From an uncultured Acidimicrobiales bacterium (lineage in GTDB: Bacteria > Actinomycetota > Acidimicrobiia > Acidimicrobiales > DATKAS01), in contig CAVPSD010000006.1 in the NCBI GenBank assembly GCA_963708175.1, forward strand, positions 640,538-704,537: 64,000 nt of DNA, read 5' to 3'. The notes beneath the pieces were generated by a model. The model ran no database searches. It had not been told where the DNA came from and saw only the letters and a list, made by a program, of their open reading frames with translations. Each line of letters starts with the position of its first letter. Position 1 is the first letter of the stretch. Shown piece by piece: positions 4,794-58,812 of this stretch. The translations under genes and the position numbers were made by a program.

Positions 4794-4830
4794 CTCCCAT
4801 GCACCCTACGACCGCGGGTCAAGATGCGAC

Positions 4831-5799
4831 ATGGGCTGGGAGCAAGACGCCGAGGGTGTGCTCGTGGGTGGCCTCGAGCCGGTGGCCGAAATCCTGATCG
4901 TGGACTACGACCCGGGCTGGCCGGGACGGTTCGAGGACGAGCGCGCCCGCATCGACGCCGCCCTCGGCGACCACGCGTTGCGGGTCGAGCACATCGGCTC
5001 GACGTCCGTCCCGGGGCTCGCGGCCAAGCCGATCGTCGACATCCTCCTCGTCGTCGCGGACGTCGAGGATGATGCGGTGTTCGGCCCCGCGCTCGAGGCC
5101 GCCGGCTACGAGCTGCGGGTGCGCGAGCCCGATCACCGGATGTTCCGCACGCCGGCGCGAGATGTCCACGTGCACGTGTACGCGCAAGGGTCGCACGAGA
5201 TCGTCGACTACCTCGACTTGAGGGACTGGCTTAGAGAGGATGCCGAAGGCCGCGTCCGCTACACCTCGGTGAAGCGCTCGCTCGCCACGCAGTCGTGGCG
5301 CGACATGAACGAGTACGCCGACGCGAAGTCACCGGTCGTGAGCGACACGTTGAGGCGTGCCCGCGAGTGGCGGTGCAGCCGGCATCGCGCAGTGGTGCGC
5401 CGGCTCTTCGACGAGGTCTGGAACGGCCGGCAGCTCGGGCTCGTCGACGAGCTCTACGCGGCGGACGTCGTGTTCGACTACACGCCCTACGCACCCGTCG
5501 GGCACGGCCGCGAGACGATCCGCGAGTCGCTTCAGCGGGCATGGAGCGCGTTCCCCGACTATGACGAAGAGTTGCTGTCGCTGACCGCTGAGGGTTGGCG
5601 GGTCGCGATGCATCTGCGGATCACCGGCACCCAATCGGGTCAGTGGGGATCGTTGCCGCCGACGGGCAAGCGGCTCGAGTTCGAGGAGATGGCGGTGCTT
5701 CACTTCGACAGCGAGGGACGCGTCGCACATCAGCGGGGGATCGTCGACAACCTGAACGCGCTGCGTCAAGCGGGCGTCATCCCGACACCGCGGTCATGA
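4831..5799 (+). CDS. GrpB domain fused to SnoaL-like ester-cyclase domain
   Basis: ORF 4765..5799 trimmed to ATG 4831. The N-terminal half has GrpB signatures (YDPGWP, HIGSTSVPGLAAKPIVDI, HVHVY). The C-terminal half is SnoaL/ester-cyclase-like (RRLFDEVWNGR, YTPYAPVGHGRE, GIVDNLNALRQAG). Confidence 0.65.
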   Translation: MGWEQDAEGVLVGGLEPVAEILIVDYDPGWPGRFEDERARIDAALGDHALRVEHIGSTSVPGLAAKPIVDILLVVADVEDDAVFGPALEAAGYELRVREPDHRMFRTPARDVHVHVYAQGSHEIVDYLDLRDWLREDAEGRVRYTSVKRSLATQSWRDMNEYADAKSPVVSDTLRRAREWRCSRHRAVVRRLFDEVWNGRQLGLVDELYAADVVFDYTPYAPVGHGRETIRESLQRAWSAFPDYDEELLSLTAEGWRVAMHLRITGTQSGQWGSLPPTGKRLEFEEMAVLHFDSEGRVAHQRGIVDNLNALRQAGVIPTPRS

Positions 5800-41713: not shown

Positions 41714-42772
41714 ATGACCGCAGTCGGCGGCGCGATCAGCTTGGTCGGCCTCGAGAAGCGATTCGGAGACCACCTCGCCGTCGACCACATCGACCTCGAC
41801 ATCCGCGGGGGCGAGTTCTTCTCGTTGCTCGGACCGTCGGGATGCGGGAAGACGACGACCCTGCGCATGATCGGAGGCTTCGAGCGACCGACATCGGGGC
41901 AGGTCTTGATCGACGGTGCGGACGTGAGCGGATCGCCGCCCGAACGCCGGCCCGTGAACACCGTCTTCCAGAGCTACGCGCTGTTCCCCCATCTCACCGT
42001 GCGCGACAACGTGGCATTCGGCCTCCGGTTCGGGGACGCCTCGAAAGACGACGCTCGCCGTCGCGTCGACGAGGTGCTCGCGACGGTGCGCCTCACGGGC
42101 TTCGACAAGCGCAAACCCCATCAGCTGTCGGGCGGACAGCAGCAGCGCGTCGCCCTCGCTCGCGCTCTGGTGCTGCGCCCACGAGTGCTGTTGCTCGACG
42201 AGCCGCTCGGCGCACTCGACGCGAAGCTTCGCAAGGCATTGCAGCTCGAGCTGGTCGCTCTGCAACGTGAGGTCGGCATCACGTTCGTCTACGTCACCCA
42301 CGACCAGGAAGAGGCGCTCACGATGAGCGACCGCCTCGCGGTCATGGACAGCGGCCGCATCGAGCAGTGCGGCACGCCTCGGGAGGTGTACGAGCAACCG
42401 TCGTCGGTGTACGTGGCCGACTTCCTCGGCGTCACGAACCTCATCCATGCGCACGGGCACGGCGACGGGCGCTGCACCATCGGCGAGCAGACGATCGTCG
42501 CCGGCGACGGGGCTCTTGACGTGAGCGGCCCAGTGCGGCTCATCGTGCGACCGGAACGCGTCAGCCTCGACGGAGAGTCGGGCAGCGCGCTCGCGGGTCG
42601 CGTCGAGCGCCTCGTCTACGTCGGCGCGACGACCCAGGTGATCGTGGGGCTGCCGACCGGTGACACCATGCAGGTGCTCGTGGCGAACGACGGCCGCCGC
42701 AGCCTTCCCCCCGAGGGCTCGACGGTGACCCTGCGCGTGCTCCCCGAAGCAGTCCGGGTGATCAGCGCCTGA
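41714..42772 (+). CDS. potA: polyamine-type ABC transporter ATP-binding protein
   Basis: Walker A GPSGCGKTT, FQSYALFPHLTVRDNVAFGL, LSGGQQQRVALARAL, LLLDEP, C-terminal TOBE-like domain. Confidence 0.8.
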   Translation: MTAVGGAISLVGLEKRFGDHLAVDHIDLDIRGGEFFSLLGPSGCGKTTTLRMIGGFERPTSGQVLIDGADVSGSPPERRPVNTVFQSYALFPHLTVRDNVAFGLRFGDASKDDARRRVDEVLATVRLTGFDKRKPHQLSGGQQQRVALARALVLRPRVLLLDEPLGALDAKLRKALQLELVALQREVGITFVYVTHDQEEALTMSDRLAVMDSGRIEQCGTPREVYEQPSSVYVADFLGVTNLIHAHGHGDGRCTIGEQTIVAGDGALDVSGPVRLIVRPERVSLDGESGSALAGRVERLVYVGATTQVIVGLPTGDTMQVLVANDGRRSLPPEGSTVTLRVLPEAVRVISA

Positions 42773-42779
42773 GCGCCGG

Positions 42780-42837
42780 GCGGGATTGTCGAGCGAAGCG
42801 AGCAGGAGCCAGCCGAAGCGAAGCGGAGGATGGCGAC
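42780..42837. repeat. intergenic 57-58-nt repeat, copy 1
   Basis: cgggattgtcgagcgaagcgagcaggagccagccgaagcgaagcggaggatggcgac, identical to copy 2. Lies between the convergent potA and potC stops. Confidence 0.9.
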
Positions 42838-42855
42838 CAGGGCTCAGCGCCAGTC

Positions 42856-42874
42856 GGCGGCGCACTGCGCCGCC
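42856..42874. terminator. GC hairpin centred between the twin repeats (possible bidirectional terminator)
   Basis: ggcggcgc-act-gcgccgcc: perfect 8-bp G/C stem with a 3-nt loop. No U-tract on either strand. Confidence 0.3.
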
Positions 42875-42887
42875 GGGCGGCGGACTC

Positions 42888-42945
42888 GCGGGATTGTCGA
42901 GCGAAGCGAGCAGGAGCCAGCCGAAGCGAAGCGGAGGATGGCGAC
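42888..42945. repeat. intergenic 57-58-nt repeat, copy 2
   Basis: Perfect direct copy of 42780..42837, 51-nt spacer, ends 15 nt before the potC stop. Confidence 0.9.
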
Positions 42946-42959
42946 GAGGAAGGCTGAGC

Positions 42960-43853
42960 TCACACGATTTCGAGGTCGGCGACGGTGCGCAGCGCGCTGG
43001 TCGACGCGTCTTCGTCACCCGAGCGGCGGCGCATGCCGCGCATCACGGTGAAGACCAGGATCAGCGCGCCCACGGTCGCGACGAGGATGCATGTGGCGAG
43101 CGCGTTGAGCGCCGGCGTGCTGCCGCCGCGGATCGATCCGTAGAGCTTGACCGGCACAGTCTCGGAGCTGGCGCCGTTCGAGAGAAATGCCGACACGACG
43201 AAGTCGTCGATCGAGGTCGCGAAGACGATCACGGCGCTGGCGATGACCGCCGGCGCGAGAAGTGGCAGCAAGATCAACCGAACGGCCTGCAATGGCGACG
43301 CACCCAGATCGCGGGCCGCCTGCTCGAGGTCAGGGCCGATGGTGAGCAACCGGCTCCGCGTGATGATCACCACATAGGAAAGCGAGAGCGTCACGTGGCC
43401 GATCAGCTGCGCAGGTCGCCCGAGGCTGATCGCGTCGAACAGGTTGGTGAACACCAGGAAGAGCGAGGTCCCGATCACGATCTCAGGCGTGACCAGTGGG
43501 ATCAGCATCCCGACTCGGGTGGCCCGCGCCGTCCGGGACCGCCAGCGCACCATGCCGACGGCGAGCGCGACACCGAGTGGAGTCGCAACGCAGATCGTGA
43601 GCGCGGCGAGGATCAACGAGTTCGTGAGGGCGTGGTGCAGGGTCGGGTCATTGCGCACCGACAGGTAGGGATCGGTCCAGTACCAGCGCAGCGAGAAGCC
43701 CTGCCAGACAGAGCGGCTGCGGCCGGAGTTGAACGAGAACAGCACTGCGACCGCTACGGGTGCGAGTGACCACACGACGTAGAGCCACGTGATGGCGACC
43801 AGTGCCCGCGGACGACCCCACGGGTTCGCGATCCACATGCGGAGCCGGCTCAT
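42960..43853 (-). CDS. potC: polyamine-type ABC transporter permease
   Basis: ORF 42960..44492 trimmed to ATG 43853 (MSRLRMWIANPW), with ATGA overlap with the upstream permease. EAA-type loop LEQAARDLGASPLQAVRLILLP. Confidence 0.75.
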   Translation of the reverse strand: MSRLRMWIANPWGRPRALVAITWLYVVWSLAPVAVAVLFSFNSGRSRSVWQGFSLRWYWTDPYLSVRNDPTLHHALTNSLILAALTICVATPLGVALAVGMVRWRSRTARATRVGMLIPLVTPEIVIGTSLFLVFTNLFDAISLGRPAQLIGHVTLSLSYVVIITRSRLLTIGPDLEQAARDLGASPLQAVRLILLPLLAPAVIASAVIVFATSIDDFVVSAFLSNGASSETVPVKLYGSIRGGSTPALNALATCILVATVGALILVFTVMRGMRRRSGDEDASTSALRTVADLEIV

Positions 43854-44773
43854 CGCTCGAGCTCCCGTTGCGCCCTGGCCGTCACCCAGACGTAGTACGC
43901 CATGAGCACGAGCAGCATCGCCGACAGGATGAGCACCAGCGACGCGCCCACCTGCTTCTGCGTCGAGTTCTGTATGTAGAAGGTGATCTGGTTGCCGATC
44001 ATCGAGGTCTTCGGCGACCGCGAGAGCAGGTCGGTCGTGTAGTAGTCGCCGAACATCGGCAACGCGACGATGACGGCCGCGGCGATGCACCCCTGCTTGC
44101 TGAGCGGCAGCGTGACGCGGAAGAACGCCGAACGCGCGGTCGCGCCGGCGTCGCGCGCGGCCTCGAGCAGCCGTGGATCGATGCGATCGAGACTGGCGTA
44201 GAGCGGAAGGATCAAGAACGGGATGTACCCGTACACGAGCCCGAGCACGACGGTGACGGGGTTCGCGTCGAGGAAGTTGCGGGGACCCCCGAAGATCGGG
44301 AACGCCTCGAGGAACCGGTTGACCCAACCGTCGGCACTCAGCAGGTTGACCCACGCGAGCATCCGCATGAGGTAGCTGACCCAGAAGGGCAGGACGAGCA
44401 ACGCCAACAGCAGCGCACGCCGTCGACCCGCGTGGCGTGCCAGGTAGTAGGCGACCGGGTACCCGATGAGGAAGCAGAGCGCGACCGCGCACGCGACATA
44501 GAGGATCGTGCGCTCGAACGGTGCCCGCAGATCACCGGTGAGGACGCGAGACAGGGTGTCGTTGAACGCGGTGAAGTCCCACTGCAGCGGGTTCCACTCG
44601 GGCTGCGCGGTGAGGAAGATCGGGTCGGTCGTGCCGAAAGCGACGCCGGCCACGGCGTAGAAGGGGATGAAGAAGAAGGCGAGCAGCCATGCCGTACCGG
44701 GAAGCGTGAAGCCTCCCCAGAGGAACCCGAGCTCGTTCGGCCGGGTCAGCCTCCGGCGTTGAACTTGCTCCAC
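43850..44773 (-). CDS. potB: polyamine-type ABC transporter permease
   Basis: 307 aa, GTG start. LEAARDAGATARSAFFRVTLP EAA loop. Six TM helices. Confidence 0.75.
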   Translation of the reverse strand: MEQVQRRRLTRPNELGFLWGGFTLPGTAWLLAFFFIPFYAVAGVAFGTTDPIFLTAQPEWNPLQWDFTAFNDTLSRVLTGDLRAPFERTILYVACAVALCFLIGYPVAYYLARHAGRRRALLLALLVLPFWVSYLMRMLAWVNLLSADGWVNRFLEAFPIFGGPRNFLDANPVTVVLGLVYGYIPFLILPLYASLDRIDPRLLEAARDAGATARSAFFRVTLPLSKQGCIAAAVIVALPMFGDYYTTDLLSRSPKTSMIGNQITFYIQNSTQKQVGASLVLILSAMLLVLMAYYVWVTARAQRELER

Positions 44774-45958
44774 GCGTCCTCGAGCTTGGCCTCGGTCTCA
44801 CGCGGCAGGGCGAGGATGAAGATGCCCTGGGCGAAGTCCTCGTCGGTCACCAACGTGTTCGTGAGGTTCTCGGGGATGATCTCGGCGGCGAGCACCTTGT
44901 CGGCCTCCATCCCCTGCACCACGCCCTGGTAGCCGGTGAACGCGAAGTTCGTGAGCGCGTTGTCGGTGTCCATCAGCATGTCGAGGAAGAGGTGCGCGAG
45001 CACCGGATGCTCCGCGTCCTTCAGGATCGCGCTCGAGGTCGGTGCCGACGACGGTGACGTCCTTCGCGGGGCGCCAGTAGCCGAGCACCGAAGGCTCCAC
45101 GCCGTCGGGCAGATAGCCCGTGGCGAGCACCATGTCGCCCGACCAGGCCTGGTTGATCTTCGCCTCGCCGGCAGGCAGCTTCTCGTAGGCGACGATGTCG
45201 ACCTTCACGTTCGAGTCGTCGACGAGACGCTGCAGCTCCGCGGCGGCCGACGCGAGGTCGTCGTCGCTGGGCGTGTTGATGTTCGTCTTACCCAGCTTGA
45301 GCATCGCCATCGCGAATGCGTCACGCGAGTCGTTGAGGATGCCGACCTCGCCCTTCCATTTCGGATCCCACAGTGCGTCCCATCCCTGCTGGTCCATCGT
45401 CGCCGGGTCGATCGCGTCGGTGCGGAAGCCGATGCCGGTGGTGAACACCGTGTAGGGGATTCCGTAGTGCAGCCCTTGGTCGAAGAACGGGTTCGCGGCA
45501 CTCGGCAGCAGGTTGCCGACGTTCGTGAGGTAGGTCTTGTTGAGCGGCTGGATGAGCTTCGCTCCGACGTACTTCGGCAGCTGGTCGATGCCGATCGACA
45601 GGATCAGGTCGACCTTCAGCGCGCCCGACGAGATCCTCGAGAGAAGCTCGGGGCCGTTTTCGTAGGTGGAGATGGAGACGTCGACGCCGTACTTCTCCTT
45701 GAATGCATCGACGAGCTCGGGCGAGACGAAGTCGGCGTAGTTCGCGATGTTGAGCGTGCCGCTCTCGGGGCTGAGGCCGTCGGCGATCGCCGGGTTGTCG
45801 TCGTAGATCGGCAGCGTGACGGGTTTGTCCGGGGTGGCGATCTGCGTAGCCACCTCGGTGTCGACGTTGGCACTCGAGTCGTCGCTGCCGCACGCAGCGA
45901 TCACCACGACGGCGGCTGCGGCACCGAGGAGCGTGCGACGGGAGAACGGCGCGGCCAT
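44746..45958 (-). pseudogene. potD: polyamine-type ABC transporter substrate-binding lipoprotein, frameshifted (extra base near 45034)
   Basis: Twin-Arg/lipobox N-terminus RRTLLGAAAAVVVIAACGS. ORF 44798..45958 reads to ..VTVVGTDL. The conserved SAILKDAEHPVLAHLFLDMLMDTDNAL...KFNAGG* continues in another frame (ORF 44746..45003). The junction is gac ctc G agc gcg. Confidence 0.75.
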
Positions 45959-46042
45959 GATCGAGCGAGCCTAGGGGCCGGAACAGACCTGTCGGGCGGC
46001 GGGAGCGAAAGCTGAACGACGAGTCAGGACTACGCTCTGCCC

Positions 46043-47670
46043 ATGGCAGAGCTCGCCGATGCGATCGTGATCGGCGGCGGGCACAACGGCCTCGTCGCCG
46101 CCGGCTTCCTCGCCAAGGCCGGGCTGCGCCCGATCGTGCTCGAAGCCCGCGACGGTCATCGGTGGCGCAGCCATCACCGAGCAGCCGTGGGGGCCCGACT
46201 TCAAGGTCACCGCGCTGTCATACGTCATGAGCCTGATGCCGCGACGCGATCATCGACGGGCCTCGACCTCGAGCGGCACGGCTACAAGGTGTACCCGATG
46301 GGCCCGTCGTACTCGCCGCTGCCCGACGGGCGGCGCCGTGCACATGAGCGAGGACCCTGCGGACCGCTTCGAGTCGGTCGCCAAGTTCTCCAAGCGCGAC
46401 GCCGAAGCGCTGCTCGAGTACGACGCCTGGCTCGAGGGCATCGCCGAGGTGCTCGGACCGCTGCTCACCGCGGTGCCGCCGAAGCTCGGCTCGAAGCGGC
46501 CGCGCGACCTCGTCGACCAGCTGCGGACTGGCGTGGCGGCTGCAGGGTCTCGACGTGCGCACCGCGGCCGACGTCGACGCGGCTGTTCACGATGTCGATC
46601 GCGCGACCTGCTGCGCGAGTGGTTCGAGACGCGACGCGGTGCAGGCGATGATGGCGGTCAACGGCATCATCGGCACGTGGGCCGGGCCCGAGGAACCGGG
46701 CACGGCATACGTGATGCTCCACCACTCGATCGGTGACGTCGGCGCCGGGCCGACCTCGAGGCGTGGGGCTACCCGCACGGCGGCATGGGCGCGGTGAGCG
46801 ACGCGATCCGCCGCGCGCCGAGTCGCTTCGGCGCGACGGTGCGCACGAGCGCCCCGGTCGAGCGGGTGCTCGTGCGCAACGGCGGGTCGTACGGCGTGGC
46901 CCTCGCCGACGGCGACGAGATCGACACCGACCTGGTCGTCACTGCGATCCACCCGCAGATCCGCTTCCTCCGCCACCTCGACGCCAGCGAGCTGCCCGAC
47001 GACTTCGTGCGCCGCATCCGCAACTGGCAAGACCGCAGCGGCACCGTGAAGGTGAACCTCGCGCTGTCGCGAGCTGCCCGACTTCTCGTCGCGATCCCGG
47101 CTCACACCAGCAGCCGCACCACACCGGCGCGATCGAGCTGGCCCATCGCTCGACTACCTCGAGCACGCGTTCCAAGCAGGCGGTGAGCGGCGCGCCAGCG
47201 ACCCGCCCGTTCAGCGACGGCTGCATCCCCTCGACGTGATCGCACGATCTGTCCCGCCGGGCACGCACGTGATGAGCCTCTTCACGCAGTGGGTGCCGCA
47301 GACGTGGAGCGACGAGCCGCACCCGCGACGAGCTCGAGGCGTACGCCGATCGGGTGATCGACGGCTACGACGAGCTGGCGCCCAACTTCCGACGTCGATC
47401 ATCCACCGCCAGGTGATCGGGCCGTACGAGATGGAGCACACCTACGGCCTCATCGGCGGCAACATCTTCCACGGCGAGCTCAGCGTCGACCAGCTGTTCC
47501 ACAACCGCCCGGCGCCGGGGTACGCCGACTTCCGCCCCCCGATCGCCGGCCTCTACCAGGCGCACTCGGCCACGCACGGCGGTGGCGGCGTCACCGGCAT
47601 CCCCGGCTGGCAGGCCGCGCGGGCCGCACTCGCCGATCAGCGGGCCGCGCGGTGGAGAATCAAGCGATGA
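46043..47670 (+). pseudogene. CrtI/phytoene-desaturase-like FAD-dependent oxidoreductase, multiply frameshifted (copy 1)
   Basis: Starts DAIVIGGGHNGLVAAGFLAKAG (Rossmann GxGxxG). Conserved segments alternate between all three frames more than ten times. Ends ..GGGVTGIPGWQAARAALADQ..*. ATGA overlap with the next gene. Confidence 0.75.
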
Positions 47671-48874
47671 CGACGCGGCGGCCCGCCCCCATCGACCCGG
47701 CGGCGCTCGACCGCGTGCTCGCGCCGTTCGGCCACAGCCACATGCTGCCGCGGGAGGCCTACGTCGACGAGGCCGTGCTCGCGTGGGAGCGCGAGGCACT
47801 TCTTCGAGGGTGGATGGGTGTGCGCGGCCGCGTCACGGACCTGCCCGAGCCCGGCAGACCAGCGCGCACTGTCGGCCGGCGGCGCCGGGCGTGCTGCTCA
47901 CGCGTGACCGCGACGGCGTGCTCCACGCCTTCGCCAACGTCTGCCGCCACCGCGGCCACGAGCTGCTCCCGTGCGCGGGGCGACAGTCGTCAACACGAGT
48001 GTCGTCGACAAGGCTGTCGTGCAGTGCCCGTACCACGCGTGGAGCTACGAGCTCGACGGCCGCCTGCGCCTCGCGCCACGGTTCGACGGCGGACGAACTT
48101 CGATCCGTCGAGCGGTCGCGCTGCTGCCGGTCCGGTCACGCCGAGTGGGGCGGCTGGCTGTTCGTGAACGTGTCCGGCGACGCCGCCGGCCCTTCGACGA
48201 GCACCTCGGCGTCTCTCGCCGGCGCAGCTCGCGAACTGGGAGTGCGAGCGCCTGGTCGTCGCCGCCACCCATCACTACGAGCTCGCCGGCGAACTGGAAG
48301 ATCGCGGTCGAGAACTACCACGAGTGCTACCACTGCCCGCTCATCCACCCCGAGCTGCGCGGGTGTCGCCCGCCCGACGTCGGGCGACAACTCGACGAGG
48401 GCCCGGCGCGTGGGTCGGCGGCACGATGGACCTGCGCCGACTGCGCGTCGACGATGTCGCTCAACGGCGAGTCGGGCGGAGTGGCGCTGCCGCGGGCTCG
48501 ACCGCCGAGCAGCGGCGCCAGGTGCTCTACCTCAAGGTGTTCCCGAACCTGCTGGTCAGCCTGCACCCCGACTACGTGATGACCCATCGGATCGAGCCGG
48601 TGTCCGCCGGCGCGCACGACGGTCGAGTGCCAGTGGCTCTTCGCGCCCGAGGCCGCGAGCGTCCCGACTTCGACCCACCTACGCCGTCGACTTCTGGGAC
48701 CTCACGAACCGCCAGGACTGGGCCGCGGTCGAGTCGGTGCAGCGGGGACTTTCGCATCCCTCGTTCGTGCCGGGCGTGCTTGCGGAGCAGGAGAGCGACG
48801 TCTACCGCTTCGTCACGATGGTGGCGCGCGGCTACCGCTGCGAGCCGATCAGGGGCGGAGCGGTACCGCGCTGA
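47667..48874 (+). pseudogene. Rieske [2Fe-2S] oxygenase alpha subunit (choline-monooxygenase-like C-domain), multiply frameshifted (copy 1)
   Basis: Rieske motifs CRHRGHEL and CPYHAWSY are found in different frames. WKIAVENYHECYHCPLIHPEL and the C-terminal DFWDLTNRQDWAAVESVQRG are in yet other frames. Confidence 0.7.
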
Positions 48875-49448
48875 CGCCGAGCAGCGACGCGGTGGCGCGG
48901 CGCGCCTGTCCGAGCGACGCCGCACGCCGGCTCGAGGTCAGCGCGACCTGCACGCCGAGGCCGTCGATCAACGCAGCGATCACCGCGGCCATCTCGGCTG
49001 CGTCGCCTTCACTGAACACACCGCTGTCCATGCCCTCCTGGACGACGGCTTCGAGGACGGCACGCCAGCGGTCGTCCAGCTGACGCCACGTACGCCGCAG
49101 CACGGGCGAGCGCAGCGCCTCCCCCCACGAGTCGATCCACATCGCCCACGACGCGCGTGTGCTCGGTCCGACGCCGGCGACGAGGAGCGCGTCGATGCGA
49201 TCGACGGGCGACGAGGGTGAGTCCGCGATCGCGTCGAGGTCGTCGAGCTCGTTTCGTGAGGCGAACGCGAACGCCTCGGCGAGCAGCGCGTCCTTGGACC
49301 CGAAGTGGTACACGACGAGCGGCGGCGAGATGCCCAGCCGGTGGGCGACGTCGCTCATGCGGGTGTTGGCGAAACCCCGCTCGCGCAGCACCTCACACGT
49401 GGCCCCGAGGATCTCCTCGCGCCGAGCCTCCCCCTTCGGCCGCGGCAT
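48849..49448 (-). CDS. TetR-family transcriptional regulator
   Basis: ORF trimmed to ATG 49448 ([49 protein letters not shown] is the TetR HTH). 1-nt TGATG overlap with the upstream accessory gene. Confidence 0.85.
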   Translation of the reverse strand: MPRPKGEARREEILGATCEVLRERGFANTRMSDVAHRLGISPPLVVYHFGSKDALLAEAFAFASRNELDDLDAIADSPSSPVDRIDALLVAGVGPSTRASWAMWIDSWGEALRSPVLRRTWRQLDDRWRAVLEAVVQEGMDSGVFSEGDAAEMAAVIAALIDGLGVQVALTSSRRAASLGQARRATASLLGVSAVPLRP

Positions 49449-49696
49449 CAGGCGGCCGTGACCCCGTCGGCCGCAAGCATGTCCTCGAGCGCGTGCACCC
49501 ACGCCTCGTAGTAGGGCATGTCATCCGGATGGGCGGCGATTGCCGCGATGAGATGCGGGCGGAAGTGCTCCCACGCCTGGCCGGTGCTGTCGAGGTAGGC
49601 GGCCACCATCCCGAACGCCCGGCTCTCCCAGGGTGCCCCGAACACGAGCTCACCGTTCTTGCGCGGCACCTCGCTCGGGAGGTCGCCCTTGGTCAC
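49448..49696 (-). CDS. nitrile hydratase accessory (activator) protein
   Basis: GTG 49696 overlaps the alpha-subunit stop (GTGA). [37 protein letters not shown] matches the NHase accessory-protein family. 82 aa. Confidence 0.7.
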
Positions 49697-50308
49697 CGGA
49701 CCACGCCGATCATGTGGTCTCGCGTGACGAGAGTCGGCGAGCTCGTCCTCCGACCGGCCGTCGACGGCGTCGGGCACGAGCGGCAGGACGAGGTAGCGGA
49801 TCTCGGCGCTCGAATCCCACACCCGCAGCTCGACGTCGTCGTCGAGAGTCGTCCCGAACTCTGCCAGGACCGCACGGGGTTCGCGCACGACTCGCGACCG
49901 ATACTCGGGGCTCTTGTACCAGCGCGGCGGGAGGCCCAGCACGGGCCACGGGTAGCACGAGCACAGCGTGCAAACGACGACGTTGTGGACGGTGGGCGTG
50001 TTCTCGAGGGCGACGATGTGCTCACCCTCGGCGCCGCCGAAGCCGAGCTCTGCGATCGCCGCTGTCGCGTCGTCGAGCAGGCGCTCGCGGTACGCGGGGT
50101 CGACCCAGGCGCGGGCGACGACCTTGGCACCGTTCATCGGCCCGAGGTCGTGCTCGTAGGCCTCGACGACCGCATCGATCGCGTCACTGGTGACGAGACC
50201 GCGTTCGACGAGGAGCGACTCGATGGCGGCGACGCGGTTCTCGACGTCCGTGAGCGGCGCGGGGTGGTGCCCATGGTCGTGATCGTGGTCGCCGTGCTCG
50301 TCGCTCAT
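49693..50308 (-). pseudogene. nthA: cobalt-type nitrile hydratase alpha subunit, frameshifted near the 3' end (extra base at about 49732)
   Basis: Metal claw [10 protein letters not shown] (CTLCSC is the Co type). The His-rich N-terminus is [15 protein letters not shown]. After ..SEDELAD the conserved [12 protein letters not shown] is in the +1 frame, so the ORF track shows an alpha::accessory fusion (49448..50326). Confidence 0.8.
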
Positions 50309-50943
50309 TCGAGGTAGGTCTCCCACAGGTCGATGTACAGCGTGCCCGGTTCGGCATCGGCGCCCCAGAGATCGTGCATTGCGAAGGCAACGGTGTAGAG
50401 CGCCTCGGGCTCACCCTCGCCCATGGTGTGCGGCAGCGGCCACCCGCCGTGCATGGCGACGACCGTGCCGGTGACGCCGCGGACATAGCGCGGGCACCGG
50501 TGATGGTGCGCGGGAGCCATCCTCCGGACGGTCACGCGCTGACCGCTCGCGAACCGCGGGCTGACGCTCGCGACGGGGTCGTCGCGTGGGGAGGTCAGCG
50601 CGCGCACGAGCCCCGCGGCACGATCAGGGTTGGCGGTGGGCGCGACCTCGACGGGCCGTTCGATGCGGTCGTCGATGTCGGCGACCGCGAGAGTGCCCGC
50701 CGCGACGAGACCTCGCTCGAGCGAGAACGCCCAACGCTCGAAGTAGCTCGCCGCGAGGTACGCCGCCGGCGGCATCGCCTCGATGTTCGGGCGCACCCCT
50801 CCGGCCCGGAGCCCGGCGGTGTTCATCATGAGGGCGAACGTGCGACCCTCCCACCGCTCGCGGAACACCGGTTCGTCGTCCTCGAGGAGGGCAGCGACCG
50901 ACCCGAACCCGTGCATCCCACCCATGTCGTGGGCTCCATCCAC
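50305..50943 (-). CDS. nthB: nitrile hydratase beta subunit
   Basis: ORF 50305..51117 trimmed to GTG 50943 ([14 protein letters not shown], the canonical beta N-terminus). ATGA overlap with alpha. Confidence 0.85.
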
Positions 50944-51004
50944 ATTGGTCACCCTACGCGAGCCCGGTAGGCTGAACGACGGTTCAGGATCCGCCGGAGG
51001 TGAC

Positions 51005-52637
51005 ATGGCCACGATCGCCGAACAGCTCGGCGAGATCGGGTTGCCGGAACCGATCAGTGCGCTCGCCGCACGGGAGTGGGACGCAGTGGTCGTCGGCGGC
51101 GGCCACAACGGACTCACGTGCGCGGCCTACCTCGCCCGAGGCCGGCAAGCGCGTGCTGGTGCTCGAGCGGCGCGAGCGGCTCGGCGGCGCGTGCACGCTC
51201 GAGCGACCGTTCCCCGACAGCCGCTACGTCGTCAGCCCGTGCGCGTACGTCGTCGGCCTGCTCGACCAGGTCGTGATCGACGAGCTCGACCTCGCGCCGC
51301 CGCGGGCTCGAGGTCTTCGTGGCCGATCCGAACCTCTGGGCGCCGTTCCCCGACGGCGACGTCGTTCGCGCAGTGGAACGACGACGCGAAGACGCAGGCG
51401 AGCCTCGACGCGCTCGGCCTCTCGCGCGCACGACATCGAGGGCTACTGGGCCTACGAGCAGGTCTTCGACGAGATGCGCCAGCGCCTGCGCACCCGCGGC
51501 CGCGACAGCCTGGATCGGCGAGTCGCCCACGCGCGACGAGCTCGAGGCGATGCTCGGCCACGACCAGTGGATGATCGACATCCTGTTCGACGCGTCGATC
51601 GCCGAGGTGCTCGACCACTACATCGACGATCAGCGCCTGAAGGACGCGCTGTACGGCCAGGGCGTGATCGGCGCGTACGCCGGCCCGCGCGACTGGGGCA
51701 CGGCGTCGGTCAAGCTGATGCACTACCAGGGCGACCTCGGCGGGCAGGGCCCGGTGTGGGGCTACGTCAAGGGCGGGATGGGGGTGATCAGCTTCGCCAT
51801 CGCCGAGGCCGCGGTGGAGGCCGGCGCGGTGCTGGCCTGCGGCGTCGAGGTGGCCGAGATCGTCCCGGGCGAGGGCGTCCGCCTGGAGGGCGGCGAGCTG
51901 ATCCGAGCGTCGCACCGTCGTCTGCAACGCCGACCCGAAGCGGGCGCTGACGATGCTCGGCGCTCCGGGACGCGGTGCCGGCCGCGTACCGGTCGCCGCC
52001 TCGAGGACGTGGCAGGTCCGCAGCCCGGTCGTGAAGTTCAACGCCGCGCTCACCCGCCTGCCGACCGTTCCCGGCCGCCGACGGCGCGACGTGGCCGTAT
52101 CACGTCGATGATCTCGGTGACCCACGGGCTCGACGCCGCGCAAGCAGGCGTTCGAGGACTGCCGGCCGGCCGCGCCAACGTCGGCTACGGCGAGGTGTAC
52201 TTCCAGACCGGCTACGACCCGACGCCCGCGCCCGAAGGGCCGGCACCTGATGAGCGTGTTCGGGCAGTACGCGCCGTACACGCTGCCGACGGCTCGACGT
52301 GGGACGACACGCGCGACGGCGTCGCGCGGCAGTTCGTCGACCTGATCGGCGACGTTCGCGCCCGACATCGAGGACTGCATCGAGCACTGCGAGGTGCTCG
52401 GCCGCCCCGGACATCGAGGCGCGCGTCGGGCTCACCGGCGGGCACATCTTCCAGGGCGAGACGATGCCCGACCAGATGTGGGAGCACCGCCTCACGGCGC
52501 GCACGCCGATCCCCGGCTTCTACTTCTGCGGCGCCGCGACCCATCCCGCCGGCTCGGTCATCGCGCTCAACGGCCGCAATGCGGCCATGGCCCTGCTCGT
52601 GGACGACCTACCAAAGGGAGTCGGCGAGCGCGCGTAG
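51005..52637 (+). pseudogene. CrtI/phytoene-desaturase-like FAD-dependent oxidoreductase, multiply frameshifted (copy 2)
   Basis: WDAVVVGGGHNGLTCAAYLA at the N-terminus. Later conserved blocks (DQWMIDILFDASIAEVLDHYIDDQRLKDALYGQGVIGAYAGP.., ..TGGHIFQGETMPDQMW..FYFCGAATHPAGSVIALNGRNAA) lie in different frames. Confidence 0.7.
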
Positions 52638-53693
52638 CAGGAGCTGGTGCACGTGAGCCACGCCCTTCTCGTGCTCGGGCGACAGCCTCCCCCGCGGGTC
52701 GAGGCCGCCGTCGTAGCTGCGCTGGACCCGCTCGCAGATGTCGAGGTCCTGCTCGCCGACCGCGAGCGCGGCTTCGTGATCGGCCTTGCGGCGGGCGTCA
52801 CCGACCTCGGACGTCCAGTAGCGGTGGTAGTCGACGCGTGACGTGCGCGGGCCGAGCGGCGTGACGATCAGCGCGTGGAAGTAGCTCGGGAAGACGCTCA
52901 CCATCAGGTTTGGGAAGATGGTGAAGTAGAGGCCGGACATGAAGGGCTCGTCCGCGTGCGATGCCGCGACTTCCTCCCATCCGGGCTTGATGCGGTCGGC
53001 CGCGAGCACGACCATGCCCTCCACTTCGATCGGATAGTCCCAGCCCGTGCCCCCGAGCTGCGGATGGATGAACGGCGTGTGGAAGTTCTCGGAGTAGTTC
53101 TCGACGAGCAGCTTCCAGTTGAACGAGCGCACGACGTGCTCGGTGAGGCCGGGCTCCATCGTCTCGACGGCGCACGGATCGATCGCGTCGGCGAGGGGCC
53201 CGAGGTCGAGCGGCGGCGCTTCGAGGTCTGGGTTGACGAACAGGAAGCGCGACCACGTGGCGACCTGCACGGGGAAGAGCGAGGAGTCGGCGAGGTCGAA
53301 GCCTGGGGCGCCGGTCATCCCACGTGCCTTCGAGAGGCGTCCGTCGAGCTGATAGATCCACGCGTGGTACGGGCACTGCAGCACTCGCACCTGACCCGTG
53401 CCCTCCGCGACCGGCGAGCCCCGATGGCGGCACACGTTGAGGAAGCCGTGCAACGTGCCCTTCGCGTCCCTCGTCACGAGCACAGGGATCTCGCCGCCGA
53501 CGAGAGCGGTGGTGAACGAGCCCGGTGCGGCAACCGAGTCGGTGGTGCCGACACACGACCACCCGTGCCGGAACACCGCGTCGACCTCGGTGTGGTGATG
53601 ATCGGTGTCGCCGTACCAGCGCACCGGAAGTGTGGTCGCGCGGAGCAGGGGAACGCCGAGCCGCAACCGCACCTCGTCTCGCAACGATCCCAC
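52608..53693 (-). CDS. Rieske [2Fe-2S] oxygenase alpha subunit (choline-monooxygenase-like C-domain), intact (copy 2)
   Basis: 361 aa, GTG start. CRHRG...CPYHAW Rieske motif. NWKLLVENYSENFHTPFIHP mononuclear-iron region. The 3' end overlaps the convergent oxidoreductase by 30 nt. Confidence 0.8.
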   Translation of the reverse strand: MGSLRDEVRLRLGVPLLRATTLPVRWYGDTDHHHTEVDAVFRHGWSCVGTTDSVAAPGSFTTALVGGEIPVLVTRDAKGTLHGFLNVCRHRGSPVAEGTGQVRVLQCPYHAWIYQLDGRLSKARGMTGAPGFDLADSSLFPVQVATWSRFLFVNPDLEAPPLDLGPLADAIDPCAVETMEPGLTEHVVRSFNWKLLVENYSENFHTPFIHPQLGGTGWDYPIEVEGMVVLAADRIKPGWEEVAASHADEPFMSGLYFTIFPNLMVSVFPSYFHALIVTPLGPRTSRVDYHRYWTSEVGDARRKADHEAALAVGEQDLDICERVQRSYDGGLDPRGRLSPEHEKGVAHVHQLLLRALADSLW

Positions 53694-53705
53694 GGCTCCA
53701 GCCTC

Positions 53706-55143
53706 TCAGGCGTAGGAGGGGTGCGCGCGGGCCGAATGCCGATCGTCGAGCGCGGACACCGCCTCGGCGAAGCGCTCGACGTTGGCGACGAAGCGCCGAG
53801 CGTCGCTGTCGGTGTGCTGCACCGACAGGGTCCACTGCTCGCTCTTGCCCCAGGGCGGAAGGAAGACGCCGCCGTTGTGCTGGAAGAGCCAGTGGCAGTG
53901 GGAGAGCTCGGTGTCGACAGCAAGGAACTCGCGGTAGTGGCGCACCGGGGTCGGGTGGAACACGAGACACCCCTTCGCCCCGAACCGATGCCCGTACGCG
54001 GACACGCCGTTCTCGGCGCACGCGGTGAGGGCTCCTTGCATCATCTGCGCGCCCAGCTCGTCGATGCGCGCGTACGCCGTTGGGGTGAGCACCTCGGTGA
54101 GCGTGGCGCGAGCCGCAGCCATCGTGAGCGGGTTTCCGTTGAACGTGCCGACCTGGTCGTAGCGGCCGTCTGCGATCGCCGACATGACCGCTTCGGTGCC
54201 ACCGATCGCACCGCAGGGCAGGCCACCCGCGAGCGCCTTCGCGAGGCAGACGATGTCCGGGGTGACCCCGGAGATACCGGTGACGCCGGCGGGACCCGTG
54301 GTCAGGCCGGTCTTCACCTCGTCGAACGCGAGGAGGACGCCGTGCTTGCGGGTCAGCGCGCGGACCCCCTCCAAGTAGCCGGGCAGCGGCGGGATGATCC
54401 CCGCGTTCATCATCATCGGCTCGATGATCACGCCTGCGATCTGACCGTCGAGCTCGGTGAGGACCCGCTCGAGCACCGCGAGGTCGTTGAAGGGAACGAC
54501 AGTGGCGAGGTCAATCATCGCCTGGGGGATGCCGCTGCCCGCGGCGACGCTCGCGGGTCGCTCGTACGGACCGACCTCGTCGAAGCCGTGGAACATCGAC
54601 ACCATCACCGCGTCGTGATGACCGTGGTAGCTGCCTTCGATCTTCACGATGCGATCGCGGCCCGTGATCGCGCGCATGAGATGGATCGCGTCCATCGTTG
54701 CCTCAGTGCCGCTGTTCCCGAAGCGCCAGAGGGGAAGGCCGAACCGTTGCGCGAGGTTCTCGGCGACGACGACCGCGTCGTCGGTCGGCTGCGCGAAGTG
54801 CGACCCGAGCGCGATCCGCCGCTGCACCGCCTCCGACGATCGCCGGATGGGCGTGGCCGACGAGCATCACGCCGTAGCCGCCATGCAGGTCGACGTACTC
54901 CGTGCCGTCGACGTCCCAGATCCTGGAGCCGTGGCCGTGGCTGACCCACACCGTGCCTGGCCTGCTGATCATCCAGCTCGAAGTCGCCCCACCCGCGAGC
55001 ACCCCTTTCGCTCGCGCGGTGCGGGCGGCGGACGCCGGTTGACGGGCGATGAAGACCCGCTCTTCCCGCTCGATCAGGTCATCGAGCGACATCTCCGAAA
55101 GCTGTGACTCCGAAACCCTCGCGGCATCAGCGAGGAGTGCCAT
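53706..55143 (-). pseudogene. class-III aminotransferase (glutamate-1-semialdehyde aminomutase-like), frameshifted (extra base near 54833)
   Basis: The N-terminal 103 aa (MALLADAARV..GYGVMLVGHAHPAIV) are in one frame. EAVQRRIALGSHFAQPT...FDEVKTG...CLAKALAGG (PLP-Lys) is in ORF 53706..54827. The junction is atc gtc G gag gcg. Confidence 0.75.
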
Positions 55144-55164
55144 GGGAACCAACCCCTGTCGCCT

Positions 55165-55201
55165 GACTGACTCATCAGTCGAGACTGACTGATTGGTCAG
55201 T
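55165..55201. promoter_or_regulatory. two operator-like palindromes sharing GACTGACT half-sites in a divergent promoter region
   Basis: GACTGA-ctca-TCAGTC (55165..55180) and ACTGAC-tgattg-GTCAGT (55184..55201). GACTGACT occurs at 55165 and 55183. The segment is locally AT-richer, between the divergent aminotransferase and M15 genes. Confidence 0.45.
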
Positions 55202-55229
55202 ATAAACACAGGCGGGCGCGCCCGGGAAG

Positions 55230-55247
55230 CCCCCCCCCCCCCCCCCC
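55230..55247. repeat. C18 homopolymer tract
   Basis: 18 consecutive C residues (counted by hand from the numbered lines), 25 nt upstream of the M15 peptidase GTG start at 55273. Confidence 0.9.
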
Positions 55248-55272
55248 ACACGCGCGCCCGTACGCTTCCCAG

Positions 55273-56039
55273 GTGGCTCGCCGGCTCAAGCTCGCGGGGG
55301 CTGCGCTCGCGGCGCTGCTTCTCGCCGGTTGCGTGCACCCCCGCCCGGACTGGTTGGGCACGCGGCCGCTCCCGCTTCGGCCGGACGGGCTCGGTGAGAT
55401 CCAGCCGACCCCGCCCGAGCTGGTCGACCGCCAGCTCGTGTCGATCGACTACCTGCCGCCTCCGGCGTCCGACACGTTCGAGTCGTCGATCGAGATGGTG
55501 CCCGCGGAGGTGGTCGCTCGATCCACGTACACGCGGGCGTGCCCGGTCGCGCTCGAGGACCTCCGCTACGTGAAGGTGTCGTTCTTCGGGTTCGACCGGA
55601 AGTTCCACACCGGTGAGCTGCTGATCCACGAAGTCGCGGCCGCACCGATCGTCGAGGTGTTCCGCAAGCTGCACGCGGCTCGCTTTCCCATCGAGGAGAT
55701 GCGAATCCCCGATCCCGCACTGGCGAACGCCGCGCCCACGGGCGATGGCAACGACACGGTCGCGTTCGCGTGCCGTCCGGTCGTGACGTCGACGCAGACG
55801 TGGTCGCAGCACGCGTTCGGCTTGGCGATCGACATCAACCCGTTCCAGAACCCGTACGTGAAGGGCGACATCGTGATCCCCGAGCTGGCGTCGTCCTATC
55901 TCGCCGCGGCAGCGTTCGTCCGGGGATGATCGAGCCGAATGACGTCGTGGTGAAGGCGTTCACGTCGATCGGCTGGAAGTGGGGCGGCAGCTGGAGCTCG
56001 CTGAAGGACTTCCAGCACTTCTCCGCCAACGGCAAGTAA
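55273..56039 (+). pseudogene. M15-family (VanY/LAS-type) D-Ala-D-Ala carboxypeptidase-like lipoprotein, frameshifted (1 base missing near 55900)
   Basis: Lipobox LLLAGC. Zinc motif SQHAFGLAID (H-x6-D) and the distal His in DFQHFS. The C-terminal RRGSVRPGMIEPNDVVVKAFTSIGWKWGGSW..* lies in the -1 frame (ORF 55770..56039). Confidence 0.7.
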
Positions 56040-56104
56040 CGCTTCGCCGATTCTCTTGGTGCTGGCGTGCCGTATCGAGTGAGAAACACCAAGAAATCGA
56101 GCCG

Positions 56105-56549
56105 TCAGCGGCGGCGGATCTTGGTGCGGCGGATGTCGAGGCGCTCGCCGGTGGACTCGTCGACGACGACGGGATGGATCTCGTCGCCGGTCTCACGGTC
56201 GACGAGGCGGACGGGGGGCAGCTCGCCGTCAGGCCAGAGCCAGTCCTCGCCCCATCGCCACATCGCCGCGAGGACATCCCAGAACGCGCGGCCCTTGTCG
56301 GTGAGGCGGTACTCGTAGCGTGGCGGATGCTCCTCGTACGCCACGCGGTCGAGCATCCCTTCGTCGACCAGTCGATCGAGCCGCGCCGCGAGCACCGCGC
56401 GCGGGATGCCGAGGTCCGCGATGAAGTCGTCGAAGCGTTTGCACGCCGGCGAACGCGTCGCGCAGCACGAGCGGCGTCCACCAGTCGCCGATGAGGTCGG
56501 TGGTCCGAGCGATCGGGCACGGCCACTCGTCGAAGCGCGTGCGGCGCAC
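56105..56549 (-). pseudogene. HxlR-family transcriptional regulator, frameshifted (extra base at about 56441)
   Basis: CPIARTTDLIGDWWTPLVLRDAFAGV is in one frame, then KRFDDFIADLGIPRAVLAARLDRLVDEGMLDRVAYEEHPPRYEYRLTDKG in the next (ORF 56105..56395). GTG 56549 lies 2 nt after the upstream stop. Confidence 0.7.
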
Positions 56550-56551
56550 CG

Positions 56552-58812
56552 TCAGGCCACCGCCTCGACCCGAGCCCGCACGTGCTTGTGCCACGGAGTG
56601 CCAGCGAGCCAGTCGCGGTCGTGCCGCGACGTGAGCTCGTTCGGCGCCACGCCGTGCGATCGGCCGTCTGTCGGGCGAGGTGAGCCCGAGGCCGTTCGGC
56701 AGGCTCACGTGGCCGGGCTGCATGCATCGGTGACCTCGACCGGCGCTTCGATCGATACCGCGCCGGGTCATGACGCGCACGCGCCCACCGCTCCTCCACG
56801 CCGACGGTCGCGGCGTCGTCGGGGTTGATGCGCAGCGCGCTGCCGCCGTCCTTCTTCCGCCAGGCGGGGTCGCGGAAGATCGTGTTGGCCGTCGACGATG
56901 CGCCGCTCGCCGGCCGAGAGCACGAACGGGAACTCGGCGTCGGCGAGGCACCTCGTCGGCGAGCGACGAGAGCTCCTCGAGCAGCTCGGGGATCACGAGG
57001 TTGATCTTGCCGTCGGCGTGTATCGAGCCGCTTCCAGGTCTCGTCGTACTCGTCGACTGTGAAGACGACGCCCGACGCGGTTCGCGAGGATCGCGTCGAA
57101 CAGCGCGTCGCCGGCTGGCCATCGAGCCCGCTCGTCGCACCGACTCGGGATAGGTCATGAAGCACGTCTGCGCGAGGCCCCACACCGCAGCCGCGCCTTC
57201 TCGGCCCTCGCCGAGCGTCGGGCCGAGCGTCTCGTAGAGCACGACCGGCGCGAGCCGGCGCGAGGTGCGGCTGCTCGACCATGGCGTCGAGAAAGGCGTC
57301 CGCGTACGCGCCGCGCCCCATTGCGCGCCGCAGCGTGCAGGCCGGCGACGTCGTCGTCGGTGAACGCGCCGAGCGCGCGCACGAGCCGGCGTGGATCTCG
57401 GGCTCCGGCAGCGTGCCGGGCAGCGGCTCGAGGATCGGCGCGCGCAGCTGGAAGACGTTCTCCGGGAACTCGAGCGTGAAGAACGTCGCCTCCCACTTCT
57501 CGTACTGGGACGAGGCCGGCAGGACGTAGTCCGCGCGGCGCGCGGTCTCGGTCAGGGCGACGTCGATCACCACGACGCAGCTCGAGCGCGTCGAAGCGCC
57601 TCGCGCATGCGCTGGCTGTCGGCGAGCGAGTGGACCGGGTTCGTCGCTCTCGACGATCATCGCCCGGAAGCGCTCGGGATGGTCGGTGAGGATCTCGTCG
57701 GGGATCGACGTTGCACGGGATGAGCCCGGTGATGATGCGGTGACCGCCGACCGGGCTGCGCCGTCGCCGCCGCCCTTGCCGCCACCGCCGAGGCCCGCCA
57801 TGCGCGTGTGGATGTTCATCCCGCCCGGCTTCGCGAAGTTGCCGGTGAGCAGGTAGAGCGAGCTTCTCGAGGTAGGAGTTGAGCGTGCTGTGCGGCGCCT
57901 GCTGGATGCCGAGGTCCTCGTAGATCGACGACGCTCGCGGCGCGGGCGATGCGGCGCGCGACCGCCCGCACGTCCTCCTCGGCTCACACCGGCGCGTCGC
58001 GCACGAGTCCGCGATCGGCACCGTCGCGAGATGGGCGCGCAGCTCGTCAGCCGTTGCGCGTGCGTCGGCCAGCGAAGCCGTGGTCGAGCAGGACCTCCTC
58101 GACCAGGACGCGAGCAGCGCGCGCGAGGCAGCAACGCGTCGGTGCCCGGACGCACCTGCAGATGGATAGTCGGCCAGCTCCGCCGTCTCGGTGCGGCGCG
58201 GGTCGATCACGATGAGCGCCCGCTCGGGATCGTTGACGATCGCCTTCAGCACGGTGCGCGCCCGCGGGAACCCGTGCGACTGCCACGGGTTCTTGCCGAC
58301 GAACACGGCGACCTCGGCGTGCTCGTAGTCGCCGGTCGTGTGGCAGCGCGGGCCGCCCGAAGAGCTGACCGTCGACCCAGAACTCGCCCGTCTTCTCCTG
58401 CGCGAGCGCGTTCGAGCGTGTAGATCGAGCCGAGCGCGCTGCGTGTCGCGCGCGCCGTAGGCGCCGCCGAGGTGGTTCCCCTGCCCGCCGCCGCCGTAGT
58501 AGAAGATCGACTCGCCGCCGTGGGCGTCGCGGATCGTCGCCGAGCCGTTCGCGCGACCTCGGCGATCGCGGTGTCCCAGTCGATCTCCTCGAACGTGCCG
58601 TCGGCGCGCCGCCGCAGCGGCGTCGTCAGGCGGTGCCGGCCGTTCTGGTAGTGGTCGAGCCGCAGCGCCTTCTCGCACGTGTAGCCCTGCGAGGCCGGGT
58701 GGGCCTTGTCGCCGCGCACCCGCGTCGAATGCGCCGGCCGTCGAGGCTGCACCTCGATGCCGCAGTTGACGCTGCAGAGGATGCACGCGGTCTGGTGCCA
58801 GTCGTCGCTCAC
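56552..58812 (-). pseudogene. molybdopterin-dependent oxidoreductase (formate-dehydrogenase/nitrate-reductase superfamily), multiply frameshifted
   Basis: GTG 58812 is preceded by GGAGG 6 nt upstream. N-terminal Fe-S motif CILCSVNCG...RVRGDKAHPASQGYTCEK. Internal blocks (GGESIFYYGGGGQGNHLGG, VAVFVGKNPWQSHGF, VVVIDVALTETARRADYVLPASSQYEKWE) and the C-terminal NELTSRHDRDWLAGTPWHKHVRARVEAVA* are scattered over three frames. Confidence 0.75.

Follow-up and report, generated by a model that had tools for sequence, protein, structure and literature searches.

BetI of Escherichia coli is the protein that binds the dyad ATTGA-N8-TCAAT of the betI-betT region, and this is the described operator closest to the palindromes considered here. 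In actinobacteria, a TANNNT hexamer placed a few nucleotides before the start codon is the signature of a leaderless transcript. In the fim promoters of Bordetella a C tract forms the spacer between the site of an activator and the -10 element; its length sets promoter activity, and its variability has been measured. These Bordetella C-stretches contain from 13 to 22 C (PMC1891110).

The window, by which we mean the whole 64-kb stretch of Acidimicrobiales DNA that was analysed, has an intergenic gap of 129 bp (55144-55272) flanked by the ATG of a minus-strand gene (55143) and the GTG of a plus-strand gene (55273), and within it are two palindromes and a run of 18 C residues (C18). Neither C18 nor the palindromes are due to chance. 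The palindromes are likely to be ordinary, newly delineated operators of a BetI-like TetR regulon, placed over the promoter of an amine-breakdown operon, and C18 is a striking singleton in a noisy assembly, at a position where a role as spacing switch is improbable. The joint explanation that we regard as rather probable combines a repressed aminotransferase promoter, a leaderless M15 peptidase gene, and a real C tract that is close to neutral. From a preliminary description of this DNA the operators, the TetR candidate, the divergent region and the caution about the assembly are all retained, and the promoter-spacing phase switch is not.

The divergent region and its neighbours

The gap lies between an operon of two genes, of which the aminotransferase is the first, and a lipoprotein gene that is followed by a regulator gene:

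52608-53693, minus strand: Rieske oxygenase gene, GbcA-like, the second gene of the aminotransferase operon
53706-55143, minus strand: class-III aminotransferase gene, with Pfam Aminotran_3 matches to both pieces
55273-56039, plus strand: M15 (VanY-like) metallopeptidase lipoprotein gene, with a Pfam Peptidase_M15_4 match and the lipobox LLAGC
56105-56551, convergent to M15: HxlR-type regulator gene, 0.9 kb from the operators

The DNA is locally AT-richer here, with a G+C content of 0.58 at 55100-55199 as compared with 0.69 for the window overall, and both this property and the presence of a divergent control region between the aminotransferase and M15 genes agree with what was first described. 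So does the observation that both flanking genes are frameshifted. The aminotransferase has a +1 frameshift near 54834, seen as a frame switch at 54833/54835 in a tblastn search with the intact protein of the related locus L005, and alignment to a relative places a single extra base at 54835. The M15 gene has a -1 frameshift near 55900, where the tblastn frame change and the sequence indicate that one base is missing, and its C-terminal WGG...DFQHF motif is readable in the next frame. The frame past each shift stays well conserved in both genes, and the shifts have the appearance of errors in the consensus or of mutations that are very recent. A molybdopterin oxidoreductase gene is also convergent to M15, and the HxlR gene is the last of the molybdopterin-oxidoreductase operon.

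The nearest genomes are metagenome-assembled genomes (MAGs) of uncultured Acidimicrobiales, with no more than 92% amino-acid identity in M15 and approximately 80-88% DNA identity over the blastn segments. Most of the near relatives are MAGs of the Microflora Danica long-read catalogue, which were assembled from nanopore reads with Flye (nano-hq) and one Medaka round, without short-read polishing (PMC12313526).

The aminotransferase-Rieske cassette (window 52608-55143) is repeatedly decaying across L001-L008 and L093-L095. It is missing from L002, L003 and L006-L008, with a short 3' remnant of the Rieske gene in L002 and L003; it has an internal deletion in L004 and L095, an inverted 5' end in L001, and frameshifts both in the window and in L093. 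A deletion between CTGAC repeats has removed the operators from L095. A segment of about 6 kb (window 41800-47650) that includes FAD/amine-oxidase gene fragments is without a counterpart in L002, L003 and L006-L008, and the alpha and beta genes of a nitrile hydratase lie directly upstream of a BetI-like TetR gene on the minus strand (window 48849-51126). The predicted nitrile hydratase, GbcA-like Rieske oxygenase, amine oxidase and aminotransferase point to an amine, nitrile or betaine catabolic island. On the other side of M15, at 56041-56107, there are two window-specific insertions (25 and 27 nt) that constitute an inverted repeat, GATTCTCTTGGTG / CACCAAGAAATC, in the gap, of lower GC (0.55), that separates M15 from the convergent HxlR gene; this repeat may be a bidirectional terminator.

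Palindromes and the predicted aminotransferase-Rieske promoter

The two palindromes built from one half-site that the preliminary description reported are present, the first reading GACTGA-ctca-TCAGTC (55165-55180) and the second ACTGAC-tgattg-GTCAGT (55184-55201). We use ACTGAC-NN-GTCAGT as the operator consensus, and a wide form, ACTGACTC-NN-GAGTCAGT, is also found. These and the other elements to the left of the C tract are as follows:

55153-55157, minus strand: AGGGG, the likely ribosome-binding site from its position 9 nt before the aminotransferase ATG
55166-55179, no strand: putative operator O1, ACTGACtcATCAGT, with one mismatch to the consensus and within the predicted 5' UTR of the aminotransferase mRNA
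55184-55201, no strand: putative operator O2 in its wide form, ACTGACTGATTGGTCAGT, overlapping the aminotransferase -10 and the predicted start site
55188-55201, no strand: the inner 14-mer of O2, ACTGATtgGTCAGT
55199-55204, minus strand: TATACT, the predicted -10 hexamer, at which GTCAGTAT is invariant in alignment A1
55223-55228, minus strand: TTCCCG, a putative and weakly assigned -35, 18 nt from the -10

The centres of O1 and O2 are 22 bp apart (two 17-nt copies at a spacing of 22 in the repeat analysis). Allowing one mismatch, ACTGACNNGTCAGT has two matches in the 64-kb window, both of them in this gap, as compared with 0.12 expected by chance from shuffled sequences, and none of 100 shuffles reaches two. 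A further site with up to two mismatches was looked for near the window TetR and nitrile-hydratase genes, and none is present there. In alignment A1, which comprises 11 related intergenic regions, the arms (CTGACTGA...ATCAGT and CTGACTGA...GTCAGT) are invariant and the centres are variable, and because of this the palindromes have the pattern of protein-binding sites.

The same motif recurs at considerable distance. A pattern scan of metagenome contigs, together with the context of aminotransferase and TetR homologues, places the operator in five distant Actinomycetota clusters, ahead of aminotransferase, Rieske, amine-oxidase or transporter genes. In L081/L086 it lies between a Rieske gene and an aminotransferase gene whose product is 64% identical to that of the window and which is followed by the orthologous Rieske gene. 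L089 has two sites; L090 has three, each of them intergenic in a cluster of aminotransferase, Rieske, amine-oxidase and ABC-transporter genes; and L091 and L096 have one each. With conserved arms around a variable centre, a length of approximately 14-18 bp as in TetR operators, and recurrence in distant clusters, the palindromes are well accounted for as protein operators, as had been proposed. A literature search for the half-site returned nothing relevant. The double palindrome is also present at L087:317-352 and L084:2895-2930, a pair of loci that includes a phage-like contig encoding a terminase, a portal protein and a primase, and a contig of 51% GC in which it is directly 5' of a TetR-SulP gene pair; the half-site is therefore in use well beyond Acidimicrobiia.

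An E. coli-type promoter scan gives no site in this region, and we infer the promoter elements instead from conservation across lineages. The likely ribosome-binding site falls inside a block, GGGAACCAACCCCT, that is near-invariant in A1. The putative -35 is within a second conserved block, CGCGCC(G/C)GGGAAG, in which GGGAAG is 18-19 nt from GTCAGTAT; its distance from GTCAGTAT is nearly constant in every motif-bearing relative in A1, and it is missing from the aminotransferase-less loci L003 and L006-L008. The last three bases of TATACT (ACT) are the first three of O2, and on the minus strand the fusion in the window clade reads (T/C)ATACT-GAC. Most of the operator sites that were read show a similar fusion to a -10-like hexamer (TAGACT-GAC or CATACT-GAC), namely those of L081 and L089 and two of the three in L090, and the L091 site reads TAGACT-CAC. 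With the window included, TAGACT, CATACT or TATACT is fused to GAC at five sites in four lineages. Because the hexamer is fused to the operator in L081, L089 and the two L090 sites, the operator is taken to overlap the -10, and thus to have the location expected of a TetR operator, over the predicted -10 and start of the promoter that it regulates.

The recurring motif, its fusion to a -10 and the conserved block argue that the palindromes are two tandem operators. A minus-strand sigma-70-type promoter (TTCCCG at 55228-55223 and TATACT at 55204-55199) would drive the aminotransferase-Rieske operon, and O1 and O2 would cover its -10, its start site and the early part of the leader. With a dimeric repressor of the helix-turn-helix kind on O1 and O2, RNA polymerase would be blocked until an amine or betaine-type ligand released the repressor. 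The best candidate for this repressor is encoded at some distance from the gap:

48849-49448, minus strand: BetI-like TetR regulator gene, with TetR_N and TetR_C_6 (Pfam), the candidate binder of O1 and O2

The best NCBIfam matches of this protein are BetI models but are below the cut-offs (79.8 bits against 201.3 for TIGR03384 and 70.5 against 118 for NF001978), so that it is BetI-like and not BetI; it is 27% identical to E. coli BetI.

The preliminary description named an adjacent HxlR or TetR regulator as the possible binder, and of these the TetR protein is the better candidate, with a mixed pattern of co-occurrence with the operator. TetR_C_6 homologues are encoded inside the motif-bearing clusters L089, L090 and L096, and regulator and operator co-occur there and in the window clade. 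Against the TetR protein stand the loci L003 and L006-L008 (about 12 kb each), which retain its gene but have lost the motif together with the aminotransferase and Rieske genes. That the operators are bound instead by the HxlR protein (56105-56551), or by a regulator outside the sequence seen, would agree with the position of the HxlR gene only 0.9 kb away and its conservation beside M15 in relatives, and also with the visible sequence of the motif-bearing loci L091 and L081/L086 (11-21 kb seen), in which there is no TetR gene. We consider this unlikely, as no HxlR gene is among the called genes of L089, L090, L091 or L096, three of which have the TetR_C_6 homologue, and as the HxlR gene persists in loci without the motif and belongs to the molybdopterin-oxidoreductase operon. 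The palindromes could also act not as protein operators but as a hairpin in RNA or DNA, for instance as a recombination site or as a leader structure in which the ribosome-binding site is hidden. In favour of this, the 14-mers have 87% complementarity to each other, a fold of -23.7 kcal/mol (z = -2.7) is obtained for the predicted 5' UTR, and in L001, L004 and L009 the middle dinucleotide of one unit can pair with that of the other. We find this highly improbable, since every unit is itself a near-palindrome of one consensus, lone units are present at other promoters in L090 and L096, the L084 units are direct and not inverted, the centres are unpaired in L002, L005 and the window, and none of the Rfam 15 covariance models matches anywhere in 54800-55600 at E values up to 1. 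A long covarying hairpin formed by the two 14-mers was accordingly rejected; three of six lineages pair, but the consensus is palindromic, single units occur, and the L084 copies are direct. The preferred reading of the palindromes thus remains that of two operators for a BetI-like TetR protein.

Close to the end of a nanopore MAG contig, L009 has an inverted duplication (4700-5600) that takes in the operators together with the 5' ends of the M15 and aminotransferase genes. Its second copy is full of frameshifts and looks like a foldback-read assembly artefact. An invertible element bounded by the inverted motif copies of L009 was therefore rejected, the second copy being part of this error-ridden duplication near the contig end, and this origin of the second inverted copy also counts against a hairpin or recombination site.

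The predicted M15 promoter and the C18 tract

The remaining elements of the gap lie between the putative aminotransferase -35 and the M15 start codon:

55230-55247, plus strand: C18 homopolymer (G18 on the minus strand), a net gain of 16 nt relative to relatives
55252-55260, no strand: GCGCGCCCG, a direct repeat of 55216-55224 and the inverted partner of CGGGCGCGC (55213-55221)
55261-55266, plus strand: TACGCT, the predicted M15 -10 hexamer, 6 nt before the GTG at 55273, with TAC..T invariant in A1

The M15 mRNA is predicted to be leaderless because TACGCT is only 6 nt before the GTG, an arrangement with the leaderless signature. A TAC(C/G)(G/C)T hexamer is found 6-7 nt before an ATG or GTG in every relative, and TANNNT is located 5-8 nt before the in-frame start in 46 of 82 homologous M15 loci, as compared with 1/82 and 0/82 for the other two frames; this suggests that the M15 lipoprotein family is generally leaderless in many Actinomycetota lineages. 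Nothing is conserved upstream of the -10 among the M15 loci that lack the aminotransferase. M15 would thus be transcribed without a leader from a -10-only promoter (TACGCT at 55261-55266), with the transcript starting at the GTG at 55273. GGGAAG was also considered as an ECF-type -35 for M15 and was rejected, as its spacing does not fit and the block is absent from the aminotransferase-less M15 promoters.

C18 is uninterrupted and ends 25 nt before the M15 GTG, as first described, and no other homopolymer in the 64-kb window exceeds 7. From the run-length decay of the window itself, which drops about five-fold per added base, approximately 1e-7 runs of at least 18 are expected. Related loci amounting to 962,969 bases have a maximum G/C run of 8, and a search for other long poly-C/G tracts through the window and these 963 kb of relatives finds none above 8. 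The view that such a tract is extremely unusual even in a GC-rich genome is therefore well founded. It lies between the putative aminotransferase -35 (55223-55228) and the M15 -10 (55261-55266), and spans -26 to -43 relative to the start of M15 and approximately -38 to -55 relative to that of the aminotransferase transcript.

The distance from GGGAAG to the M15 -10 is 15-16 nt in nine relatives, 31 nt in the window and 57 nt in L009 (alignment of 11 sequences). The relatives have GGGAAG followed by 2 nt, 9-10 variable nt and (C/G)(C/G)(C/G)(G/T)-TAC, and in the window 18 C replace the 2 nt, such that L005 has a gap of 16 nt opposite C18 in the alignment. L009 has an unrelated surplus of 41 nt at the same position, indicating that this spot tolerates changes in length, and as relatives carry 15, 16 or 57 nt here the spacing is unconstrained. 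Poly-C is absent from the 12 related copies of the intergenic region, none of which is from the same species. The relatives closest in M15 sequence (L001, L088 and L094) have C-rich CACCCCGCCC or CACCCTGTCC at exactly this position. Growth from 2 C to 18 C cannot begin through slippage alone, but two substitutions in CACCCCGCCC or CACCCTGTCC could produce a C10 run able to slip, which is a natural route to a real tract. C18 is bracketed by GCGCGCCCG and CGGGCGCGC, which are 9 nt long, 100% complementary and 30 nt apart (repeat search and DNA fold), although we estimate such a repeat to be only moderately unlikely by chance. Crossed inverted repeats are present at 55213-55273, consisting of CGGGCGCGC/GCGCGCCCG (9 nt, perfect) and CCCGGGAAGC/GCTTCCCAGG (10 nt, 90%).

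The preliminary description raised the possibility of an assembly or consensus problem, and this caution is justified because the window consensus has many unique frameshifting insertions. In a multiple alignment of 56.1-60.5 kb (4.4 kb) the window has 24 unique insertions of lengths that are not multiples of three and six unique deletions, relative to mostly 0-4 unique insertions in relatives (none in the short-read MAG L005 and 13 in the nanopore MAG L004). Most of the window insertions are single bases outside homopolymers, and their lengths range over 1-4 nt. They cluster at 51991-52402 and 56438-58748, where single-base insertions are seen every 40-80 bp in genes common to all relatives, and they are much rarer at 52402-56438; reads of related populations, cross-mapped at the polishing stage, may account for this clustering. 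A contig join at C18, which had also been considered, was rejected, as both flanks are collinear in order and orientation with L004, L005, L082 and L093.

We lean towards the tract being real, with its length uncertain, consider an artefact less probable but a serious rival, and leave a small remainder to other causes. If real, C18 would be a C-rich spacer turned homopolymer, a lineage-specific surplus of 16 nt between two core promoters, with little or no switching role. The alternative is that it arose as an artefact in the consensus of a metagenome assembled from nanopore reads only, with a true run of about 2-10 C inflated by stalled or miscalled signal or by mixed reads from related populations. 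Against an artefact, long-read errors at homopolymers usually shorten a run that is already there or make its length fluctuate, and do not as a rule add 16 bases; an insertion also enters the consensus only with the backing of most reads. The sequence on either side of the tract aligns cleanly with that of relatives, the remaining insertions specific to the window measure 1-4 nt and are not homopolymers, and the nearest relatives have a C-rich precursor. Set against these points are the unique frameshifting insertions, the two frameshifts within 700 bp of the tract, the absence of the tract from relatives in which no G/C run exceeds 8, and the rarity of long homopolymers in bacteria. Because the surrounding consensus is error-prone the tract may be partly or wholly artefactual, and in a noisy long-read consensus its reported length is unreliable. 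The nearest relatives are nanopore MAGs without short-read polishing, and the window is presumably of nanopore origin as well; R10.4 consensus sequences resolve homopolymers only to about 10, and runs of 10 or more not reliably (PMC9262707).

The same tract was proposed earlier to be a promoter-spacing phase switch for one or both of the divergent genes, in which case it would be hypermutable and would phase-vary M15, the aminotransferase operon or both in the style of the Bordetella fim C-stretches. The 18 C in the assembly, the true length being uncertain in this consensus, exceed the homopolymer length of about 8 from which slipped-strand mispairing can occur, and are far beyond that threshold; they are 25 nt 5' of a lipoprotein gene and within its promoter region, cell-envelope genes are typical targets of such tracts, and C runs of up to 19-22 are present in Bordetella fim3 promoters (PMC1891110). 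Nonetheless, C18 does not lie between the -35 and the -10 of either promoter. It is upstream of the putative aminotransferase -35 and over a part of the M15 promoter in which only the -10 is conserved among homologues, and, being located between two core promoters at a spot that tolerates 15-57 nt in relatives, it does not separate elements of a single promoter whose spacing is critical. After a change of 1-2 C the -35 region would still be all C, and both neighbouring genes appear broken in this assembly. We therefore regard a switch as improbable, and as C18 is a one-off surplus of 16 bases in a length-tolerant spacer of an error-prone assembly it cannot yet be called one. The specific version in which expansion and contraction of a real and hypermutable tract modulate a leaderless cell-wall peptidase promoter and its coupling to the TetR-controlled neighbour is more improbable still; a C/G18 run has the length required for an i-motif in one strand and, in its complement, for a G-quadruplex of three tetrads. 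A near-neutral spacer, if the tract is real, remains our preferred reading.

Significance and comparison with described systems

The ACTGAC-NN-GTCAGT motif and its promoter architecture would define a BetI-like TetR regulon of aminotransferase, Rieske-oxygenase and amine-oxidase clusters in Acidimicrobiia, and the leaderless organization predicted for the M15 lipoprotein family is useful evidence in its own right. C18 serves as an example of a striking homopolymer in a nanopore-only MAG that needs a check of the reads before a biological reading. If it were hypermutable, uncultured soil Acidimicrobiales would have their first described contingency locus of the homopolymer kind, and if real and variable it would extend homopolymer phase variation to leaderless promoters and to soil Actinomycetota that are free-living and GC-rich, which would be a modest surprise.

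Compared with the Bordetella fim2, fim3 and fimX promoters (PMC1891110), the window likewise belongs to a GC-rich genome and has a long C run within the promoter region of a cell-envelope gene, but its M15 promoter is without a conserved upstream element and the length of the spacer is unconstrained among relatives. The likeness to actinobacterial leaderless genes with -10-only promoters, in which TANNNT is followed after 6-7 nt by the start codon, is closer and, at the level of sequence, extends from M15 to the 46 homologues noted above. The E. coli betI-betT region differs from the window in the sequence of the half-site, in the presence of two tandem operators in the window, and in the regulator of the window, which has low identity to BetI, is far under the BetI cut-offs and is encoded 5.7 kb from the operators in a separate transcription unit. 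The resemblances to betI-betT are in the regulator, with its TetR_N and TetR_C_6 domains and BetI models as best NCBIfam matches, in the geometry of the dyad, with A(C/T)TGA-N8-TCA(G/A)T in the window corresponding to the E. coli ATTGA-N8-TCAAT, and in a gene cluster that includes a GbcA-like Rieske oxygenase and amine oxidases.
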